Positions 5,626 to 37,874 are shown, counted from the stretch's first letter. The stretch: DNA of 64,000 nt from Gammaproteobacteria bacterium Ga0077554 (GCA_001464585.1 LNFF01000022.1:79107-143106), one strand, 5' to 3'. The notes: generated from the sequence alone by a model not told the origin. Numbers and translations are program-made.

Positions 5626-7070
5626 TCGACCGAATCGCCGGATTGGGACGCACTCACTGCTTTACCTGATTTAGAGCGTGACCGGCGCGCACGTTTTTTT
5701 CCAGTGCTTGCAGCCGCCCCAGTGCGCACCACATTCACCATGCCCTGTTGCTCATCGCCTTCGGCAATTTGAAAGCGTGTCCACCAGTCACATAGCTCTT
5801 GAATTTCTTCACCTGCTTCGGCACGCAGCAACATGAAATCATAGGCAGCACGAAAACGCGGATGCGTCAAAGTTACAAACGGCCGCTTGCCAGTGATTTG
5901 CGTCAAGCGCAGTTGCAGGTTCCAGATTTCACGCATCGGCAAGCTGAAGCGTTTCGGCAAGGCAGTGCGCTGCACCTGACGCGCCACAATGACATTACCT
6001 GCCTCTTGCAATGCCTCGCCTTCGCTCATATGAGCATTGGTGCCTTGCACTTGCATTTCATGCGCGAGGGTGCGCATGGCGCCCCATAATAAAGCAGCAT
6101 AAAGAAACGCCGGTGTGGTGGTTTTGCCTGCGGCTATCCGTGCATCCGTATTGGTGAGCGCGCGCGACACCAACATTAAGGGAAAATGGCTTTCTTCATG
6201 CGCCAGATCAGCTTCGGTATAGGGAAACAAATGTCCGAACAAACCGTAATGCCGCAGCAACTCGAAGGTCTGCACCGCGTACCCGCCCATAAACAGCTTG
6301 ATCGTTTCATCGTATAATCGCGCGGATGAAATATCATCCAGCAAATATCCCAGCTTAAACAGCGGCGCTTCAGAATCAGCGTCTATGCGAAAGCCCAGTT
6401 TCGCCGCAAAGCGCACTGCACGCAGCATGCGCACTGGATCTTCGCGGTAACGCTGCTCGGGGTCACCAATCAACCGTAACCGCCCCGCGTTCAGGTCTTC
6501 CAGGCCACTGGTATAATCCACCAGCGAAAAATCGTCGATATTGTAATACAAGGCGTTAATCGTGAAATCACGGCGCCAGGCGTCTTCTTCGACTGAACCG
6601 TAAACATTGTCGCGCATGATGCGGCCGTCTTTGTCAGTGCGGTGCAGGTCATTTTTTTTATCCGTGTTTTGATCGGCATCATCAGCACTGGGCGCGGCAC
6701 GAAATGTCGCAACTTCGATAATATCCGCCCCCACCCGCACATGGGCGAGGCGAAAGCGTCGGCCAATCAGGTGGCAATTACGAAACTGCTCGCGCACCTG
6801 CTCGGGCAACGCATTGGTCGCCACGTCAAAATCCTTGGGTTCGCGCCCCAGCAGCACGTCACGCACGCCGCCGCCTACCAGATAGGCCTGATAGCCGGCA
6901 TTTTTAAGGCGATACAACACCTTGAGCGCGCCCTCACTGATATTGGAACGCGAAATGGTGTGTTCCGCACGCGGTATAATTTTTGGAATACTGATAATCG
7001 CTACTGCCTTATATAAAGAGGGTTTACGGGTTTGCTTGAGCAAACTCCAGCAAAAAGAGTATAATATCAT
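5622..7070 (-). CDS. pcnB: Poly(A) polymerase I
   Basis: IIPRAEHTISRSNISEGALKVLYRLKNAGYQAYLVGGGVRDVLLG aligns to E. coli PcnB N-terminus; the 26 codons upstream in the track ORF overlap tRNA-Glu, so start placed at ATG 7070 (MILYSF). Confidence 0.85.
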   Translation of the reverse strand: MILYSFCWSLLKQTRKPSLYKAVAIISIPKIIPRAEHTISRSNISEGALKVLYRLKNAGYQAYLVGGGVRDVLLGREPKDFDVATNALPEQVREQFRNCHLIGRRFRLAHVRVGADIIEVATFRAAPSADDADQNTDKKNDLHRTDKDGRIMRDNVYGSVEEDAWRRDFTINALYYNIDDFSLVDYTSGLEDLNAGRLRLIGDPEQRYREDPVRMLRAVRFAAKLGFRIDADSEAPLFKLGYLLDDISSARLYDETIKLFMGGYAVQTFELLRHYGLFGHLFPYTEADLAHEESHFPLMLVSRALTNTDARIAAGKTTTPAFLYAALLWGAMRTLAHEMQVQGTNAHMSEGEALQEAGNVIVARQVQRTALPKRFSLPMREIWNLQLRLTQITGKRPFVTLTHPRFRAAYDFMLLRAEAGEEIQELCDWWTRFQIAEGDEQQGMVNVVRTGAAASTGKKRARRSRSKSGKAVSASQSGDSVE

Positions 7071-7109
7071 TTCTTTATGTCTCGCGCAGGCTGCCTGCCT
7101 GGGACACAA

Positions 7110-9354
<2,245 letters not shown>

Positions 9355-11671: not shown

Positions 11672-12265
11672 CTAAAGGCTACCCTTGGTAGATGGCATAA
11701 TTCCCTGCATGCGTGGATCATGCTCCAGCGCCATACGCACCGCACGGCCAAACGCTTTAAACACGGTTTCGACAATGTGGTGTGCGTTACGGCCACGCAG
11801 ATTGTCGATGTGCAATGTCACCAGCGCGTGATTAACAAAACCCTGGAAAAATTCACGGAACAAATCCACATCAAAATCACCAATGCGCGCGCGCGGAAAA
11901 TCAATATGGTACTCAAGGCCGGGACGGCCTGAGAAGTCGACGACGACGCGCGACAATGCCTCATCCAGCGGCACATACGCATGGCCGTAACGACGTATGC
12001 CGCGCCTGTCACCGACTGCTTTGGTGATGGCCTGGCCGAGCGTGATGCCGATGTCTTCGACAGTGTGGTGCGCGTCAATGTGCAGGTCACCTTCAGCCTT
12101 GATGTCGATATCAATCATGCCGTGCCGCGCGATCTGATCTACCATATGATCAAGAAATGGCACGCCGGTTTGAAAATTCGATACACCTGCGCCATCGAGG
12201 TTAACTGTTACTTCGATGCGTGTTTCCAGTGTGTCACGTTTGACAGTGGCCTTGCGGTCAGTCAT
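11672..12265 (-). CDS. hisB: Imidazoleglycerol-phosphate dehydratase
   Basis: 197 aa; IGDhD single-domain form with his-rich metal motifs HHIVE / HALV. Confidence 0.95.
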
Positions 12266-12281
12266 ACATATTCTCCGAGGT

Positions 12282-13385
12282 TTATAGGGCGTGTTCCAAC
12301 GCCTTTAAAAAAGCCTGATTTTCTTCTGGCGTGCTTACGGTAACGCGCAAACAATCCGCCAGCAATGCGCTTGCGCCGTGCATGCTTTTAATCAAAACAC
12401 CTTGCGCCTTGATCGACTCAAAGATTTGTGGCGCACGTCCGGCGGGCACGCGAAACAAAATAAAATTGGCACGGCTCGGATAAACGGTAATGCCATTCAA
12501 TGCACGCAACGCTGTCAATAATTGTTCCCGATTGTCCCGCAGCCTGGCGGCCTGCGCCTCCAGCACATCGTAATGGCGCAAGGCAAATCCAGCGCTGGCC
12601 TGCGTCAATACACTGATATTATACGGTAAACGTATTTTATCCAATTCATTTAACCACGCGGGGGAACCTGCCAACACGCCCATGCGCAACCCTGCCAGTC
12701 CCATTTTCGACAGCGTGCGCAACACCAATAAGTTATCGTACTGTGCAAGGCGCGACATGAAGGTGCTGCCAGCAAAAGCGTTATAAGCCTCATCGACGAC
12801 TACCAGACCTGGGCTGATTTCAATCAGTTCACATACCTGCTGTTCATCAAACAAATTGCCGGTGGGGTTGCTGGGGTACGACAAAAACACTACGGCGGGA
12901 CGATGCCGGATAATCGCCGCGCGCATGGCGGGCATATCCAAACTATAATCACTGGCATTGAGCGGCACGCAGACAAATTCCAAACCGGTAACCGCGGCGA
13001 TCATGCGGTACATGGAAAAATACGGCTCCGGCGTCAACACCGCACGTCCCGGCGCAGCTACCGCCATGGCAATAATTTGTATCAGCTCATCCGAACCATT
13101 GCCGAGCATGATCTCCATGCCTTGCGGCACGTTAAGCGTAGCGCGCAAGAGTATTTTTAAATCACAGGCATGGGGATCGGGATAGCGATTCCACTTTGCA
13201 TCGCGCAATACTTCCAGCCACTCATCAACTAACGGTTTGGGCCAGGTGTAGGGATTTTCCATCGCATCAAGCTTGATGAGATTGCCTATCTCGGGTACAT
13301 GGTACGCAGACAAGGCACGCACTTGCGGACGAATCCACTGCTCCACTAAACTATCAGGGGGAGCATTAGCGGTTTTGGTATTCAT
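12282..13385 (-). CDS. hisC: Histidinol-phosphate aminotransferase
   Basis: 367 aa class-II aminotransferase; PLP lysine region [12 protein letters not shown]. Confidence 0.9.
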
Positions 13386-32585: not shown

Positions 32586-33380
32586 CTAATGCAATGTTGA
32601 ATGTACGATGTAAATCAATAAAACACCCACACCAATCAGCGTGGCCTGTTGCACGGTGGCGGCGGGTTGCACACGTTTATGCAGGCCGGGTATCAAGTCT
32701 GCCACGGCAATATAAATAAAGCTGGACGCCGCTATCGCCAATATATACGGCAAAATATGTTGCATGTCGCCCAGGCTGAAATAACCCAGCAGCGCGCCCA
32801 CAACCGTGGTCAGGCTGGCTAATATATTATACAGAAAAGCCTTTTTGCGGCTAAATCCGCTGTGCAGCAACACCGCAAAATCGCCCACTTCCTGGGGAAT
32901 TTCATGTGCCGCCACCGCCAGGCTGGTGACCACGCCCAAATGAAAATCCGTCAGAAACGCCGCCGCGATCAAGACACCATCCACAAAGTTGTGGATGCCA
33001 TCGCCAATCAGAATCAAGGTGCCTGCTGCCTGGCCTGTTTGATTGGTGTCGGCATGGGCATGTTCCGGCATATGCGCCTCGCAATGGTCAACATGACAAT
33101 GCCGCCACAACACCATTTTTTCCAGCAGAAAAAAGCCCAGCAGACCCAACAATACAGCCAGGGTGATGTTGTGAAAATCCACCACCCCCGGCCCCGCCAA
33201 CGCATGCGGCAACAGCCCCAAAAACGCCGCACCCAACAACGCGCCCACGGCAAAACTCACAAAATGCGGCAAAGCGCGCGTGCGCCAGGTTTCAGGCATC
33301 AATAAAAAACCGGACGCCGCCACCACACTGAGCGCGCCGCCAAACAGACTAAAAAGAATTATCCAACCAAGAAGGTTCAT
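32586..33380 (-). CDS. zupT: ZIP-family metal transporter (ZupT-like)
   Basis: 8 predicted TMs, His-rich loop HCHVDHCEAHMPEHAH, conserved HE..E motifs. Confidence 0.8.
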   Translation of the reverse strand: MNLLGWIILFSLFGGALSVVAASGFLLMPETWRTRALPHFVSFAVGALLGAAFLGLLPHALAGPGVVDFHNITLAVLLGLLGFFLLEKMVLWRHCHVDHCEAHMPEHAHADTNQTGQAAGTLILIGDGIHNFVDGVLIAAAFLTDFHLGVVTSLAVAAHEIPQEVGDFAVLLHSGFSRKKAFLYNILASLTTVVGALLGYFSLGDMQHILPYILAIAASSFIYIAVADLIPGLHKRVQPAATVQQATLIGVGVLLIYIVHSTLH

Positions 33381-33492
33381 GAGCGAAGAGGTTCAATCTA
33401 TAAATGTGTGGGCATGATACCCTAATATAGGGGTTGCCGCTGGAGTAAAACACGGGGATGTATTGTAAATTATTGATAAATAAATAAAAATC

Positions 33493-33657
33493 TACGCGGC
33501 AAGCTATGGGGCATTTCTATGTCATTCCGAGCACCGCGAGGAATCCTAAGCAAGATCCCTCCCCCGCTTTCGCGCGGGTCGGGATGACAATACACGCAGC
33601 AAGCTGCGGGGAGAGCGTAGCGAGGGGCCCAAACCCGAAGAGATTGAAATGACAAAC
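33493..33657. repeat. Family-A composite repeat R4; left boundary of NACHT cassette
   Basis: ...gcaagctatggggcatttctat gtcattccgagcaccgcgaggaatcc taagcaagatccctcccccgc...gggtcgggatgacaata cacgcagcaagctgcggggagagcgtagcgagg...aaacccgaagagattgaaatgacaaac; same direct orientation and ~85 % identity to R5. Confidence 0.7.
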
Positions 33658-33688
33658 AATGCCGTGGCGTCGCGAATTGGCAAATAAC

Positions 33689-33787
33689 TTCCGGTTGTCG
33701 CGAAGCCAACTTAAAGAAACCGAACAAATTATCGAGGTACACCACGATGAGCTCAAACGCGCTTGGCACAAACACTTCCCAGGTTGA
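33689..33787 (+). pseudogene. DUF4160-family gene remnant (C-terminal 32 codons only); N-terminus replaced by repeat R4
   Basis: FRLSRSQLKETEQIIEVHHDELKRAWHKHFPG* resembles the DUF4160 C-terminus; no start codon; overlaps DUF2442 start as in intact two-gene modules. Confidence 0.45.
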
Positions 33788-34007
33788 AGTCACCCATATT
33801 TCAAATCACGGCGTGTGGCTGTTGGCTCGCGGTCACGAGTTATTCATGTCTTACGAAAAATTTCCATGGTTCAGGGATGCGCCTGTGGGAAAAATCCTGA
33901 ATGTTGAAGAGCCAACGTCAGGGCACTACTACTGGCCGGATCTGGACGTTGATTTAACCGAAGAAATAATCTCGCATCCTGAGCGTTTCCCACTTCAGGC
34001 AAGATAA
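33747..34007 (+). CDS. DUF2442-domain protein
   Basis: 86 aa; ...YWPDLDVDL... motif; usually paired with an upstream DUF4160 gene. Confidence 0.65.
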   Translation: MSSNALGTNTSQVEVTHISNHGVWLLARGHELFMSYEKFPWFRDAPVGKILNVEEPTSGHYYWPDLDVDLTEEIISHPERFPLQAR

Positions 34008-34196
34008 CGCATAACAACTACGCACGCTTGATGCGCTTAACATATTCGCTCTTGATTGTTGGGCTTCGCAGGCTCAGCACCAACCTACCCGCCCAACTTA
34101 CTGCGTTTGTCCAAACGAATAGTGACCTGGGTTAGAATCGTACCTAGCCACGAAATAACATTACGATACCGAATAAATATGACGCGATTGGTTTGC

Positions 34197-36746
34197 TCAT
34201 AGGCATTCTAATGGGGTGTTGGGATTTTTCGCCACTCGCATACGCACAACCAGGTCGTCATCCGCCGCGAGCTGCATGAGCACATCGGCCGGGGTAGTGG
34301 CATTCTCCGCTACACGCCGACGCACATGCTGGTCGTCGTCCGCCACGAGCCGCGTGAGCACCCCGACCGGAGTAGTGGCATTCCCCGCCACCTGCCAGCG
34401 CACATCCTGGTCGTCATCCGCCACGAGCCGCGTGAGCACCTCGGCCGGGGTATTGGCATTCCTCGCCACGCCCCCACGCACACGCGGGGCGTCGTCCGCC
34501 GCGAGCCCCGTGAGCACCTCGGCCGGGGTATTGGCATTCCTCGCCACGCCCCCACGCACACGCGGGTCGTCGTCTGCCACGAGCCCCGTGAGCACCTCAG
34601 CCGGAGTATTGGCATTCCACGACACCCGCTGGCGCACATCCTGGTCGTCATCCGCCGCGAGCCGTGTGAGCACCTCGGCCGGAGTATTGGCATTCCACGC
34701 CACCTGCCAGCGCACATCCTGGCCGTCATCCGCCGCGAGCCGCGTGAGCACCTCGACCGGAGTATTGGCATTCCCCGCCACCTGCCCGCGCACGTATCTG
34801 TGAGGATCTTTGGCTAGTTTACCCAAAACCTCACTCGGTGTTTGACTATCGGTTGCAATGGCAATCCTTCTCAGCCCAGACGTTTGACAGTGACCCCACA
34901 AATAGGTCTCGATCCCGTTGCCTTCCGCTGTCATCGCTACCCCGCTGCGCCGCCATACATGCAGGGCGGTGCGCAGTCCACTGAAGGTGCGCTCTTTTCC
35001 ATTAATGATGCGAACATGATAGCCCTGATCGATCAACCACTCCGTAGCCTCTTTACGTTGCCCGGCTGTGCTCAGGCTCCAGGTAAGCGCCAGTACTTCC
35101 TGATAATCGGGTTGTTGCCAATGGCGTTGAACTACGTCCACCAGACTACTTTGCTGAATATTGGCTTGCGCCAAACACCATTCCTGAAAGGTTAAATGCA
35201 GGAATTCATAATAGTGTCCATAATCTTTCAGTATGCCTGCCGTCACTGCCACGTTGCGGAGAGTATCGTTCGAAAAACCATCATCAAGTCGGTTATTTTT
35301 CAATGTGCGGTAGGCGTGATCCAATTCTCGTCGCGGTATTTCCGTAACACGTTGCACATTCCCGGAGGCCACCAGATGAACAAGCCACGCGTGCACCACA
35401 GAAAATGCCAGGCTATCGGTTTCTGCGGGGTGACGGTTTCTGCATAATTGATAAAATGCTTCCTGGTAAAACTGGGCGCGATTTTTGGGTAATTTAATCT
35501 CTTTGTCAGGTGGATTCACCAAGGCGATTAATGTCAGGAGTAAAGGATTCGCAGTCAGCTCGCTTACCTTGTCATCAGCTTGGAGTGTTTGCCACAGTTT
35601 GTCGGCCCACGCCCCATCCACTTGATTCAAGCGCTGCCGCATCATGCCACTATGACGGCTACCTTGCCACACGCCAACTAGAGCCAACAAAAAAGCACGC
35701 TGGTCACGGGGTAACATCCCCATCACGTAATGGACCTGATCATTGGCGATGTGTTTATCAAACTCACCGTAGTAGCTGGCGGTGCGGCAGGTGACAATTT
35801 TCAAACCCGGCAAGGCGGCTACTTGCTCAGCACTCCGTTGTGCCCCAGGCAGTTCGTCCCAGCCGTCCAGCAACCACAGGCGTGTCGTTTGCCCACCCTC
35901 TTCCGTGCGCGGCACCCGGCCAAGATCGCGCAACCGAAAGACGGCGATATCATCGCGGCGGCACCCTTGGTGCCAATGTTTTATGAGTGTGGTCTTACCG
36001 CTGCCTGGTTCACCCAATATTACGGATATGCCCGCGCTCTTTTGCAGACGCCGCTGCCAAACCACATCTGCATTTTCACGTTTAAAGCGCTGTTGCGACA
36101 CATGCTCGCCGGACTTTTGCCAGCCGAGGGGAAATTCAAGGGGATTACTTTTTTCTTCCTGGGGTGAACGCGTGTTTATCGACTGCCGAACCAACCGGCC
36201 GAGCTGTAACGGATGATAAAAAGAGGGGTAGAGTCCGTCGGGGCTGCTTTTAATCTCAGGCTGATAGAGGGAGGATTGTCCACGCTGTAATAACGTATCG
36301 ATCCCTTGATTCGCGCTGGCAATACCGCGTAAAACCATGTGTTCACGAAATTCATTGGTGCGGGATAGATTCTCTGCGAGCTGTTTGAGCAATCCTTCTG
36401 TTTCTGCTGTGAAATCGATATTGGCGGTAGATGAGCCCACAGCACGTTGCCATACCGAAGCGATTCGTTCGATATTAGGGCGCTTACTCACGTCCAGGAG
36501 TAACACCAGTTCATTCCGTACGGCATCGTCGAACAGTGGCCCTTCTTTTAATAACAATGCATCCGCCAACGCCTTTTTGGTTTCACCCGCATGTTCTTGA
36601 TACCATGTCAGGGTGTCCCGTAAGGCCGCTTCAAATACACGGCGCTCTTGCTGGTTCTTCAAGAGGTCGTTTAGTGAAGATTCACCCGCGTATCCCAGAA
36701 GAAACTCAGTGAGCTTTGCAACGATCGTTATTGTTATTGGATCCAT
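34197..36746 (-). CDS. STAND NTPase: N-terminal uncharacterised domain + NACHT + 8-9 C-terminal LRV/HEAT-like 23-aa repeats
   Basis: Walker A ILGEPGSGKTT, Walker B LWLLDGWDE, then repeats NANTPAEVLTRLAADDDQDVRWQVAW. Start ambiguous: TTG 36797 in track vs ATG 36746 with AAGGA upstream. Confidence 0.8.
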   Translation of the reverse strand: MDPITITIVAKLTEFLLGYAGESSLNDLLKNQQERRVFEAALRDTLTWYQEHAGETKKALADALLLKEGPLFDDAVRNELVLLLDVSKRPNIERIASVWQRAVGSSTANIDFTAETEGLLKQLAENLSRTNEFREHMVLRGIASANQGIDTLLQRGQSSLYQPEIKSSPDGLYPSFYHPLQLGRLVRQSINTRSPQEEKSNPLEFPLGWQKSGEHVSQQRFKRENADVVWQRRLQKSAGISVILGEPGSGKTTLIKHWHQGCRRDDIAVFRLRDLGRVPRTEEGGQTTRLWLLDGWDELPGAQRSAEQVAALPGLKIVTCRTASYYGEFDKHIANDQVHYVMGMLPRDQRAFLLALVGVWQGSRHSGMMRQRLNQVDGAWADKLWQTLQADDKVSELTANPLLLTLIALVNPPDKEIKLPKNRAQFYQEAFYQLCRNRHPAETDSLAFSVVHAWLVHLVASGNVQRVTEIPRRELDHAYRTLKNNRLDDGFSNDTLRNVAVTAGILKDYGHYYEFLHLTFQEWCLAQANIQQSSLVDVVQRHWQQPDYQEVLALTWSLSTAGQRKEATEWLIDQGYHVRIINGKERTFSGLRTALHVWRRSGVAMTAEGNGIETYLWGHCQTSGLRRIAIATDSQTPSEVLGKLAKDPHRYVRGQVAGNANTPVEVLTRLAADDGQDVRWQVAWNANTPAEVLTRLAADDDQDVRQRVSWNANTPAEVLTGLVADDDPRVRGGVARNANTPAEVLTGLAADDAPRVRGGVARNANTPAEVLTRLVADDDQDVRWQVAGNATTPVGVLTRLVADDDQHVRRRVAENATTPADVLMQLAADDDLVVRMRVAKNPNTPLECL
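34216..34820. repeat. Near-identical 69-bp tandem DNA repeats (~9 units) encoding the LRV-type repeats of the NACHT protein
   Basis: Period-69 units such as cgcgagccgcgtgagcacctcggccggggtattggcattcc...; produce spurious ORFs on both strands in all frames (34216..34803+, 34310..34771-, 34326..34817+). Confidence 0.85.
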
Positions 36747-36940
36747 TGATGCAGAATGTTCCTTAAACACTTGCCTTTCAGGGAGGGTTACACCCAATTA
36801 CTTTACCATGACATGAAGAAAAATAGTGCGTGGGACGCGGGGGAAATAGCAAAATCAATCCATAAAAAAAGACCCGCCGGCAGTAAATCCGGGGGTCTCT
36901 TGGTGCGAGGTTGAATGATTAACTTCTAAAATAAAAATCC

Positions 36941-37086
36941 CCGTAGTAAGCTGCGGGGTATTTCTATGTCATTCCGGACACAGCGAGAAATCTTAAACAA
37001 GATCCCTCTCTTCGTTCGGGATGACAATAAACGCAGCAAGCTGCGGGGAGAGCGTAGCGAGGGAGAGCCAAACCCGAAGAGATTGA
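36941..37086. repeat. Family-A composite repeat R5; right boundary of NACHT cassette
   Basis: ccgtagtaagctgcggggtatttctat gtcattccggacacagcgagaaatc ttaaacaagatccctctcttcgttcgggatgacaataaacgcagcaagctgcggggagagcgtagcgaggg...aaacccgaagagattga. Confidence 0.7.
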
Positions 37087-37115
37087 TACCACTTTACACC
37101 CAGCCAGACCAATCT

Positions 37116-37874
37116 TTACTTCGCCAGCCAGATCAAACTCGCCATTCTGCCCGTAATGCTGTCACGCCGAAAAGAGTAAAAGCGTTGCGCGTCGGTGTAG
37201 GTGCATTCGCCGCCGCCATATACCGCTGTGACGCCCTGACGCGCCAGGCGTTGTCGGGCGAGCTGGTAGATGTCTGCAAGCCAACGTCCAGTAGGCGCAG
37301 GTTTAAAGGCATCTACTGCCTGCGGGTCGTGCGCCATGAATATCTCACGCACTTCTGCGCCTACTTCAAAGGCTTGTGGGCCGATGGCCGGGCCCAGCCA
37401 CGCCATGAAGCTTTCCGGGGGGGCGTCGAGCGCGGCCAGTGTGGTTTCTATGACGCCATTGGCCAGGCCGCGCCAGCCAGCATGCGCGGCGGCAACTTTG
37501 CTGCCTTCGCGGTTACATAGCAACACGGGCAGGCAATCTGCCGTCAATACGGCGCACACGACGCCTGCTTCGATAGTGTAACTGCCATCGGCGGTGCAAC
37601 CTACTGTAACCTCGGCGGCATTCACAATCTGCGTGTCATGCACTTGATTCAGCCATACCGGCGCGGCAGGCAGGTTCAGACGACGCTTCAACTGCGCGCG
37701 ATTAACAGCGACGTCCTGCGCGACATCGCCCACATGATCACCCAGGTTGAAACCCGCATAGGGAGCCCGGCTCACACCGCCGAGGCGGGTGGTGGTGTAT
37801 GCCTGCACATTAGCGGGCGCGGGCCAGTCGGGAATGATCCAGTCAGTACTATTCTTCATGGGCAACCCGGTCAT
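37116..37874 (-). CDS. pgeF: Peptidoglycan editing factor PgeF (YfiH family)
   Basis: YfiH motifs (NLG...GD, QVHD, CxxxxLLC, HAGWRG); start may be the ATG at 37859; rluD-pgeF pair. Confidence 0.8.
   Translation of the reverse strand: MTGLPMKNSTDWIIPDWPAPANVQAYTTTRLGGVSRAPYAGFNLGDHVGDVAQDVAVNRAQLKRRLNLPAAPVWLNQVHDTQIVNAAEVTVGCTADGSYTIEAGVVCAVLTADCLPVLLCNREGSKVAAAHAGWRGLANGVIETTLAALDAPPESFMAWLGPAIGPQAFEVGAEVREIFMAHDPQAVDAFKPAPTGRWLADIYQLARQRLARQGVTAVYGGGECTYTDAQRFYSFRRDSITGRMASLIWLAK

Follow-up and report, generated by a model that had tools for sequence, protein, structure and literature searches.

How does the sensor of a bacterial NLR-related protein come by new binding surfaces? This question is raised by a gene of Gammaproteobacteria bacterium Ga0077554, located on the minus strand of a DNA stretch of 64,000 nucleotides (GCA_001464585.1 LNFF01000022.1:79107-143106), which was analysed at full length, is referred to as the window in the following, and from the first letter of which all positions are counted. 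The gene encodes a putative protein with a NACHT-type NTPase, ending in LRV repeats that are encoded by similar 78-bp DNA units. On balance we favour, and consider probable, the explanation that these repeats serve as the sensor, a solenoid at the C-terminus of a stand-alone NLR-related protein, and that this solenoid evolves by out-of-register recombination between its units together with selection on a stripe of presumably exposed positions.

The array itself is easily recognised. Tandem Repeats Finder (TRF) reports a single one at 34230-34793, with a period of 78 bp, 7.2 copies, 85% matches, no indels and a score of 701, forming the 3' end of a long minus-strand open reading frame (ORF; 34197-36797), which also carries a P-loop. 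A tandem array at this place had been proposed in a note made from the DNA without database searches (the sequence-only reading), and its presence is borne out by TRF as well as by a 36-nt unit core, of which there are five copies in the array and none in the remainder of the 64 kb, against an expectation of zero from shuffles. The period of 69 bp (23 amino acids, aa) given in the same place has to be corrected to 78 bp (26 aa) based on TRF and unit extraction; the motif quoted there is itself 26 residues long, as is the Pfam LRV model. The count of eight to nine units can be kept if a divergent leading unit and a partial cap are included, but the homogeneous units number only seven. In the direction of translation, the array is composed of:

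34773-34850, minus strand: leading unit u0, DSQTPSEVLGKLAKDPHRYVRGQVAG, with LRV fold, divergent from the seven-unit block
34227-34772, minus strand: seven homogeneous units of 78 bp, encoding 26-aa LRV repeats (TRF, unit extraction in coding register, Pfam LRV, 1LRV, AlphaFold2)
34197-34226, minus strand: terminal partial unit or C-terminal cap, NPNTPLECL and stop codon (9 aa; unit extraction)

The consensus of the seven homogeneous units is NANTPAEVLTRLAADDDQDVRxxVAx, and the reading frame is unbroken over 546 bp. Described previously as almost identical, these units in fact share 76-94% of their nucleotides in pairwise comparisons (mean 83%), with 7 of the 21 pairs below 80% and just two pairs (u1/u5 and u3/u4) reaching 94%; every unit differs from each other unit by at least 5 nt. 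Their amino acid identity (58-92%, mean about 69%) is lower than the DNA identity, because the codon differences are mostly non-synonymous (165 versus 60). Exact out-of-register matches within the window array extend over 58, 25, 25, 24 and 22 nt; in the array of the syntenic orthologue L002, the longest internal repeat has 30 nt. Unit u0 is 45-55% (about 50%) identical in DNA to the other window units and encodes their framework residues with different, AT-richer codons. The cap motif is retained in distant homologues, as NPNTFLESL or NPSTLLESL. Base composition differs along the gene, the array having a GC content of 0.68, and of 0.77 at third codon positions (GC3), versus 0.52 and 0.53 in the remaining gene; local codon usage would give a GC3 of about 0.62 for the same amino acids. 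GC-biased conversion or a foreign origin of the array might be considered in this respect, but all units descend from one 26-codon unit, so that the GC3 excess is not statistically meaningful.

That the units are LRV repeats, as had been suggested (LRV/HEAT-like), is supported by two matches: Pfam LRV (PF01816) scores 116.7 bits against a cut-off of 21.6 bits (E=1.2e-34) in seven stretches, the best of which spans positions 1-26 of the 26-position model, and phmmer aligns query residues 687-841 with PDB 1LRV across six repeats (E=1.5e-9). The LRV protein of Azotobacter vinelandii (1LRV, PF01816) belongs to the same repeat family and has the same framework signature, P..L..L..D.D..VR..VA, but its units comprise 24 residues instead of 26 and it lacks a NACHT NTPase; in the alignment, each window unit shows a regular 2-residue insertion in the inter-unit turn. 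An AlphaFold2 model, built on 33 sequences (mean predicted local distance difference test, pLDDT, 80; predicted template-modelling score, pTM, 0.71), reaches a pLDDT of 90-98 over aa 630-840 and displays alternating 7- and 9-residue helices; in every unit, helix A covers positions 6-12 and helix B positions 18-26. Foldseek matched this model to the HEAT repeats of PP2A PR65 at E about 2e-6. The alpha-solenoid, for which an AlphaFold model had been proposed as a check, is in this way recovered, with pLDDT above 90 across the array and two helices per unit: it is confidently modelled that one LRV repeat of 26 residues, with helix-turn-helix structure, corresponds to each 78-bp unit and that the stacked units build a HEAT-like alpha-solenoid, the predicted core of which is formed by the framework residues P5, L9, L12, D15, V20, R21, V24 and A25.

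The solenoid is preceded by two further modules, so that the complete gene reads as follows:

34197-36746, minus strand: gene of an 849-aa NNH2-like / NACHT / LRV protein (ORF and orthologue starts)
36276-36746, minus strand: N-terminal all-helical domain, NNH2-like, aa 1-157 (shared module, P0131 homology, AlphaFold2)
35157-36089, minus strand: NACHT-type STAND NTPase and winged-helix region, aa 220-530 (motifs, family profile, Foldseek)
35991-36014, minus strand: Walker A, GEPGSGKT (invariant alignment columns, as for the next four)
35853-35879, minus strand: Walker B, LWLLDGWDE
35784-35798, minus strand: IVTCR motif
35535-35549, minus strand: NPLLL motif
35178-35207, minus strand: FLHLTFQEW motif
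34851-35156, minus strand: helical linker opening the solenoid, aa 531-632 (conservation, AlphaFold2)

The ATG at 36746 is favoured as start codon, every orthologue beginning with MD(P/L)IT, and an AAGGAA motif lies upstream of it; the exact 849-aa product is on file at JGI, NCBI (LNFM01) and ENA, in assemblies of a metagenome (PRJNA301005) that was sampled from a granular-activated-carbon filter for drinking water. A mechanical TTG start at 36797 would add 17 aa (36747-36797) found in no orthologue, and an exact database look-up of the resulting 866-aa product gave none on record.

Typical NACHT motifs are Walker A (GxxGxGK[ST]), Walker B (hhhhDGhDE), T/S-x-R after strand 4, a conserved PLhL and F-x-H-x-[ST]-F-Q-E in the winged helix, and all five motifs of the window protein are found in invariant columns of the alignments A1 and A4. 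The Pfam NACHT model (PF05729) matches the window protein below its cut-off (15.5 versus 26.7 bits, E=0.015) and over the P-loop only; the homologues P0021, P0022 and P0124 do carry PF05729. The A1 family profile retrieved 52 proteins, mostly with PF05729 and several of them named 'NACHT domain-containing' by their source, and the top Foldseek matches are the NACHT structures of NLRP9 and NLRP3 (E 6e-8 to 1e-6; template-modelling score up to 0.52 on isolated NACHT domains). Since motifs, family profile and predicted fold agree, the earlier naming of a NACHT protein is upheld despite the sub-threshold Pfam score.

The N-terminal module also heads NB-ARC+WD40 proteins (P0026, P0131), the TPR protein P0043 and the NACHT protein P0124. 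It is NNH2-like by transitive homology, because the N-terminus of P0131 passes the Pfam model NNH2, 'NACHT N-terminal helical domain 2' (E=4.7e-7, 30.1 bits versus a 27-bit cut-off), and matches the window domain at E=1e-9. AlphaFold2 models this domain as a 7-helix bundle (pLDDT 75), and it presumably acts as an output or adaptor module; a word-index search with the N-domain alignment returned nothing. Bcl-2-family rows among the Foldseek results for its fold (probability about 0.06) were discarded as not being evidence. In P0043, near-identical 42-aa TPR units stand behind the NNH2-like domain, which makes this protein another internally homogenised sensor. The linker is the most conserved stretch between distant orthologues (window versus L001, 0.87-0.93; elsewhere 0.62-0.82). 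Relatives of the NTPase swap the N-terminal domain (CHAT, DUF676 lipase, TIR, metallophosphatase or DUF4062-like) and bear LRV/HEAT or FGS domains as C-terminal sensors. Judged from sequence, the protein has the tripartite, module-swapping architecture of bacterial NLR-related proteins, with an NNH2-like helical N-domain, a NACHT NTPase and an LRV solenoid.

Does the array change between lineages? The orthologous loci compare as follows:

Window: context yfiH, gene, repeat element R1; seven homogeneous units
L002: 90% aa identity to the window protein, syntenic with the window; six homogeneous units
L001: 73% aa identity, NCBI metagenome-assembled genome, located after dnaE and before HigBA-like and ParE genes; eight units
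L063 and L064: 72% aa identity, two metagenome records, followed by a DUF2442/DUF4160 pair; about two units, no cap
L003: 93% aa identity, Logan contig ending inside the array; units garbled and uncountable

The variation in unit number predicted by the sequence-only reading is indeed found, and in the assembled sequences both number (6, 7, 8 and about 2) and order of the units appear to change between lineages. The best-matching units of window and L002 do not stand in the same order (W1 with L2-5, 91%; W5 with L2-1, 90%; W2 with L2-3 or L2-5, 88%; W4 with L2-4, 88%). The leading unit u0 is positionally orthologous between lineages, with 91% identity to L002 and 74% to L001, and takes no part in the homogenisation of the other units. 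All eight L001 units and five of the seven window units have their nearest neighbour within their own array, the mean identity being 0.837 within and 0.810 between arrays (permutation p=0.0005), and the two window pairs at 94% exceed the orthologue DNA identity of 92.6% of the flanking gene (window versus L002). Two of the five orthologous loci are disrupted: in L001 (array at 11986-12687), a 1-bp deletion in unit 7 (12500-12520) shifts the frame, and in L063/L064, a frameshift after FLHL (1940-1970) is accompanied by the loss of most units and the cap, the same lesion being present in both metagenome records.

Measured against L002, the closest orthologue, no part of the gene evolves faster than the array, whose identity is 0.77-0.82, that of all other segments being 0.87-0.99. 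Synonymous (dS) and non-synonymous (dN) divergence and their ratio (omega) are given here as Nei-Gojobori pairwise counts, which for the units means counts on non-independent, recombining sequences:

Non-repeat part, window versus L002: dS 0.18, dN 0.05, omega 0.28
Non-repeat part, window versus L001: dS 0.80, dN 0.15, omega 0.19
Among window units: dS 0.21, dN 0.19, omega 0.9
Among L002 units: dS 0.165, dN 0.19, omega 1.15
Among L001 units: dS 0.08, dN 0.20, omega 2.5

Change is unevenly distributed along the unit. Over the 20 units of the three close arrays, the entropy per column peaks at positions 19, 22, 23 and 26 (2.3-2.6 bits), followed by 18, 17 and 3, and L9, L12, D15, V20 and R21 never change; every one of the 20 units, whichever of the three lineages it belongs to, has the framework codons CTC, CTC, GTG, CCG and GCC. 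With their spacing of i, i+3/4 and i+7 in helix B, positions 19, 22/23 and 26 fall on one face of the helix, V20, R21, V24 and A25 on the opposite one, and we infer that positions 18/19/22/23/26 would form a single exposed stripe down helix B of the predicted solenoid. As an oddity, the dS between window and L001 units amounts to 0.225, far below the 0.80 in the rest of the same gene; biased conversion, constraint at the DNA level or exchange of arrays between lineages are possible reasons.

The same pattern recurs in the wider family. An exhaustive HMMER search yielded 1227 relatives at E below 1e-3, and at least three 26-aa LRV units are present in 88 of the 158 relatives examined, many with a mean unit identity of 0.6-0.72. 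In 19 homologues (one per 50%-identity cluster), variability within the array is again highest at positions 19, 26, 23, 22 and 18 (mean entropy 1.7-2.1 bits), and each of the 19 has its own framework flavour common to all its units (for example, NAAAPAEILARLAADD, NPSSPSELLAALAKDAD or NGNTSAEVLALLAKDDD). Such a protein-specific flavour bears the signature of lineage-specific homogenisation or independent expansion. A scan of GTDB species-representative genomes gave, among the matches listed, distant relatives only (at most 28% identity). Scans of metagenome DNA with the conserved 3' tail and with the unit core returned 0 matches, a weak negative, as the collection evidently lacks the source sample (the JGI contig 3300002461 should have matched). 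In other genomes, distant NACHT relatives likewise have C-terminal arrays that are homogeneous at DNA level:

L006, alphaproteobacterial metagenome-assembled genome, 592-kb contig: 78 bp x 10 at 95%
L004, Nitrospirillum amazonense: 78 bp x 2.9 at 96%
L015, an archaeon, 6519-7492: 93 bp x 10.5 at 90%
L029, Nostocales, 7400-8215: 102 bp x 7.9 at 93%

In L006, the gene (5806-8073, plus strand) contains ten units with a mean DNA identity of 94%, varying solely at positions 9, 19, 22, 23 and 26, plus one silent change at position 8. The proportion of synonymous differences (pS) is 0.018, that of non-synonymous ones (pN) 0.072, giving a ratio of 4.1, and we regard this array as the cleanest evidence, at sequence level, of diversifying selection on the stripe. 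Seen beside the much younger array of L006, the window array is a mid-aged example and not an extreme one. An ORF directly adjoining the L006 gene (8092-8949, minus strand) looks by eye like an ISXO2-like transposase. Internal homogenisation extends beyond the 26-aa LRV type, because the C-terminal arrays of L015 (6519-7492), L029 (7400-8215), L023 (7639-9686) and L054 (6901-7436) use longer units; with periods of 93, 99 or 102 bp and 74-93% matches, these units are HEAT-like and 31-34 aa long.

A mechanism can be proposed from these data. In-frame units sharing exact stretches of up to 58 bp would permit occasional out-of-register homologous pairing, upon which unequal sister-chromosome exchange, gene conversion or template switching could add, remove or recombine whole units with the frame kept. 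Because the units are 6-24% diverged, such exchange should be rare. Selection would then favour amino acid change on the variable stripe, and both processes together might re-tune the binding of the solenoid, on an evolutionary timescale between related lineages and not as a high-frequency switch. A ligand bound to the stripe could relieve autoinhibition and lead to NTP-dependent oligomerisation of the NACHT domain, by which the N-terminal helical domains would cluster and act themselves or recruit a partner. Repeat anatomy, fold class, domain architecture, the differences in unit number, the place of the variability and the raised dN/dS are shown by the data; ligand binding, oligomerisation, output activity and a role in defence we infer by analogy. 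If tested bNACHT and Avs proteins are taken as a guide, the protein most probably serves to defend the cell against phage or other invaders, because of the tripartite architecture, the conflict-type N-domains of relatives, the patchy distribution, the non-conserved location, the toxin-antitoxin (TA)-like neighbours in three loci, the pseudogenised orthologues and the evolutionary regime of the sensor.

Several results weigh against the picture of a recombining, positively selected defence sensor, and they should be considered together with the explanations that they would favour. Because the dS within the array (0.21) is no smaller than that between window and L002 (0.18), most window units are not recent copies, and the recent expansion claimed by the sequence-only reading is reduced to two pairs that look recently duplicated or converted. 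The homogenisation signal is real but small, lying 2.7 points above the identity between arrays, and the hypervariable codons of the three close arrays have a pN/pS of just 1.37; 20 units do not allow positive selection to be told apart from relaxed constraint at exposed positions, and the stripe as drawn is based on helix periodicity, not on coordinates. The dS values and the low pN/pS, along with units that are nearly as alike between the arrays of three lineages (0.81) as within them (0.84) and with the 7 of 21 pairs below 80% identity, could point to nothing else than structural constraint, that is, to an old array without ongoing exchange, in which the LRV fold demands the framework and the variable positions are merely unconstrained surface. 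We nonetheless hold this to be unlikely. It is framework codons, not residues alone, that are common to the 20 units, u0 having the same residues in other codons; unit number (6, 7, 8) and order differ between orthologues 93% identical in DNA; constraint does not predict the own framework flavour of each of the 19 homologues, and the L006 units combine a pN/pS of 4.1 with almost no silent change. A further reservation concerns the material, the close orthologues all being short-read metagenome assemblies, so that unit counts could be affected (L003 is visibly garbled). Could unit number and order have been produced by assembly across the repeat? We think this very improbable, although the window is an Illumina metagenome contig and contains exact repeats as long as 58 bp, although L003, a Logan contig, breaks inside its array and although the 1-bp deletion of L001 lies inside a unit. 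The 849-aa product and 7.5 kb of flanks are present with zero mismatches in separate ENA k127 and JGI contigs (apparently from the same sampling project), every unit pair differs by at least 5 nt, which gives each read a unique place, the frame is intact over 546 bp, the longest internal repeat of L002 (30 nt) is below the assembler's k, and the same design is found in L006 on a contig of 592 kb.

A different objection accepts the turnover of units and disputes its meaning: the protein might be a non-immune STAND NTPase with regulatory or scaffolding function (like MalT or AfsR), the solenoid of which binds a host partner, unit turnover being neutral drift. The neighbours in the window are housekeeping genes (holB, tmk, def, a ZIP transporter, yfiH and rluD); PADLOC gave P-loop-level matches only, at E of 1e-3 or weaker, with no defence model above threshold, and NCBIfam gave none above threshold either (EruA partially, 35.7 bits versus a cut-off of 1000; Avs4 at E=0.057). 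Moreover, no enzymatic effector domain was found, a Foldseek search of the N-domain against the PDB yielding nothing better than E about 1 and no recognisable effector fold, and one study (10.64898/2026.09.02.748808) describes non-immune roles for NLR-related proteins of bacteria. The defence sensor of the sequence-only reading is suggested by the architecture and has to be toned down in view of these database results and neighbours. Still, a non-immune role seems improbable to us given the sporadic distribution (13 word-index homologues, few of them close), the non-conserved location with TA-like neighbours in three loci, the frameshifts in two of the five orthologous loci, relatives with N-domains of conflict type (CHAT, TIR, lipase) and the fast, surface-focused evolution of the array. 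As to a programmed generator of diversity, sensors diversified by diversity-generating retroelements (DGRs) occur on other bacterial NACHT proteins (PMC10907252), and FGS-domain relatives are among the family-profile matches, so a DGR target or a slipped-strand contingency locus switching at high frequency deserves mention. Within this window, either appears effectively refuted: the 64 kb contain no template repeat, the unit having no further copy there, codon changes affect all bases and are not adenine-specific, in-frame units of 78 bp cannot switch the gene on or off by changes in their number, and a unit divergence of 6-24%, with 58 bp as the longest exact out-of-register match, disfavours frequent slippage and renders the slipped-strand behaviour assumed earlier unlikely.

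The favoured reading, a sensor solenoid shaped by unit recombination and stripe selection, can be compared with several known systems. Bacterial NLR-related bNACHT proteins possess 'antigen-receptor-type' C-terminal superstructure-forming repeats, HEAT-type repeats being one class, and their NNH domains have been catalogued (Kibby et al., 10.1101/2022.07.19.500537; Cell 2023). The window protein shares with them the succession of a variable N-domain, NACHT and C-terminal tandem repeats and shows the NACHT motifs, profile and fold; it differs in not being among the tested bNACHTs, in scoring below the Pfam NACHT cut-off, in having no PADLOC match above P-loop level and only the partial, sub-threshold EruA match in NCBIfam, and in its 26-aa LRV subtype of repeat. 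Fungal NLRs with highly internally conserved (HIC) WD40, ANK or TPR repeats (for example, Podospora HNWD, het-e and het-d; Dyrka 2014, PMC4986451; Ament-Velasquez 2025, PMC11761791) are well described with respect to repeat-number polymorphism and positively selected surface positions. DNA-similar units of varying number, their shuffling and the restriction of variation to a few predicted binding-surface positions are common to both; however, fungal units are 80-100% identical and those of the window 58-92% (aa) or 76-94% (DNA), the repeat of the window is an LRV alpha-solenoid, and paralogue exchange and allelic polymorphism are documented in fungi. The HIC level of about 80% unit identity is clearly reached by L006 (94% mean DNA identity) and by several homologues; the window averages 83% in DNA and about 69% in aa. 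In bacterial NLR-like proteins, WD40 and TPR repeats of unusually high internal identity have been reported (Hu 2017, PMC5587647; Dyrka 2020, 10.1101/2020.01.06.895854) and were read as young duplications, rapid diversification being proposed there and not tested. These, too, are STAND/NLR proteins with high internal unit identity, but the present repeats are of LRV type, and variable positions and dN/dS were measured for window and L006. Our literature search found no description of LRV arrays on NACHT proteins, or of LRV arrays behaving so.

The window example as such is real but fairly ordinary, the pattern being already known from fungal and bacterial NLR-like proteins. What may interest specialists is the recurrence of one set of hypervariable helix-B positions in many independent arrays, with an omega of about 4 in a young one. 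If the reading is right, this would extend to bacteria, with numbers at DNA level, a regime for which the documented cases are mainly fungal NLRs, and which for WD40/TPR NLRs of bacteria has been no more than a hypothesis. One might go further and suppose that LRV arrays on this NACHT clade represent a general, recombination-driven diversification of receptors, as a bacterial counterpart of the fungal HIC-repeat NLRs and, conceptually, of cassette-built receptors; we offer this generalisation tentatively, as possible but rather doubtful. If it were true, each lineage would homogenise the framework while four or five helix-B positions stay hypervariable by positive selection, and new binding stripes would arise as units are gained, lost and shuffled, perhaps even receptor repertoires within a population, the window array being older and partly decayed and that of L006 young. 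The sequence would then suffice to read off the recognition surface, as four or five residues in each 26-aa unit, specificity would evolve via recombination of whole units and point changes at stripe residues, and a concrete, cheap design would be available to probe what orphan NACHT proteins recognise.

Around the gene, the following features were seen:

34126-34196, minus strand: tail of about 70 bp after the stop codon, travelling with the gene (conserved in both L001 and L002, with homology to either stopping at about 34121-34126)
36862-36898, minus strand: GC-rich hairpin and T-run between the yfiH-like upstream gene and the NACHT gene (read in sequence; conserved in L002)

The tail is kept in L001 despite a different genomic context, with about 86% identity (by eye) versus a gene average of 78%, and may be an element of the 3' untranslated region or a terminator moving with the gene. 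The hairpin and T-run suggest that the NACHT gene forms its own transcription unit; scans for promoter and terminator consensus sequences gave nothing above shuffled expectation and did not call the hairpin at 36862-36898, and no known RNA families were found within 33300-37300. The genomic position of the gene differs between orthologues. In the window, two direct copies of an element of about 165 bp (33482-33647 and 36929-37086; 83-100% identical in blocks) bracket the gene, with an internal inverted repeat (GTCATTCCGA...TCGGGATGAC) and a partial third copy at 2678-2704. Because L002, although syntenic, lacks the upstream copy at this site, the element is a mobile insertion resembling miniature inverted-repeat transposable elements or repetitive extragenic palindromes (MITE/REP-like). 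Convergent with the NACHT gene lies an 86-aa DUF2442 ORF (33747-34007, plus strand), preceded by a 42-aa ORF (33659-33787, plus strand), which looks like the 3' remnant of a DUF4160 gene into which the repeat element has cut. In L063, the orthologue is followed by a DUF2442/DUF4160 pair that is intact (2596-2989), in L001 by HigBA-like and ParE genes. To judge from these three loci (window, L001, L063), a small TA-like pair tends to adjoin the gene.

Finally, arrays of this kind leave traces in annotation. The three long ORFs in other frames or on the opposite strand that the sequence-only reading had listed as spurious were all recovered by an ORF scan:

34216-34803, plus strand: by-product ORF, 195 aa
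34326-34817, plus strand: by-product ORF, 163 aa
34310-34771, minus strand, other frame: by-product ORF, 153 aa

They arise from the repetition of a unit that is free of stop codons in other frames, and when translated they give periodic strings of low complexity. In practice, arrays of this type disrupt assemblies from short reads and yield long false ORFs, which annotation pipelines should mask. Identical alternative-frame strings constitute the frameshifted tails of the database proteins P0001 and P0003 and are also found in L006, where the array spawns false ORFs of 267-475 aa in other frames.

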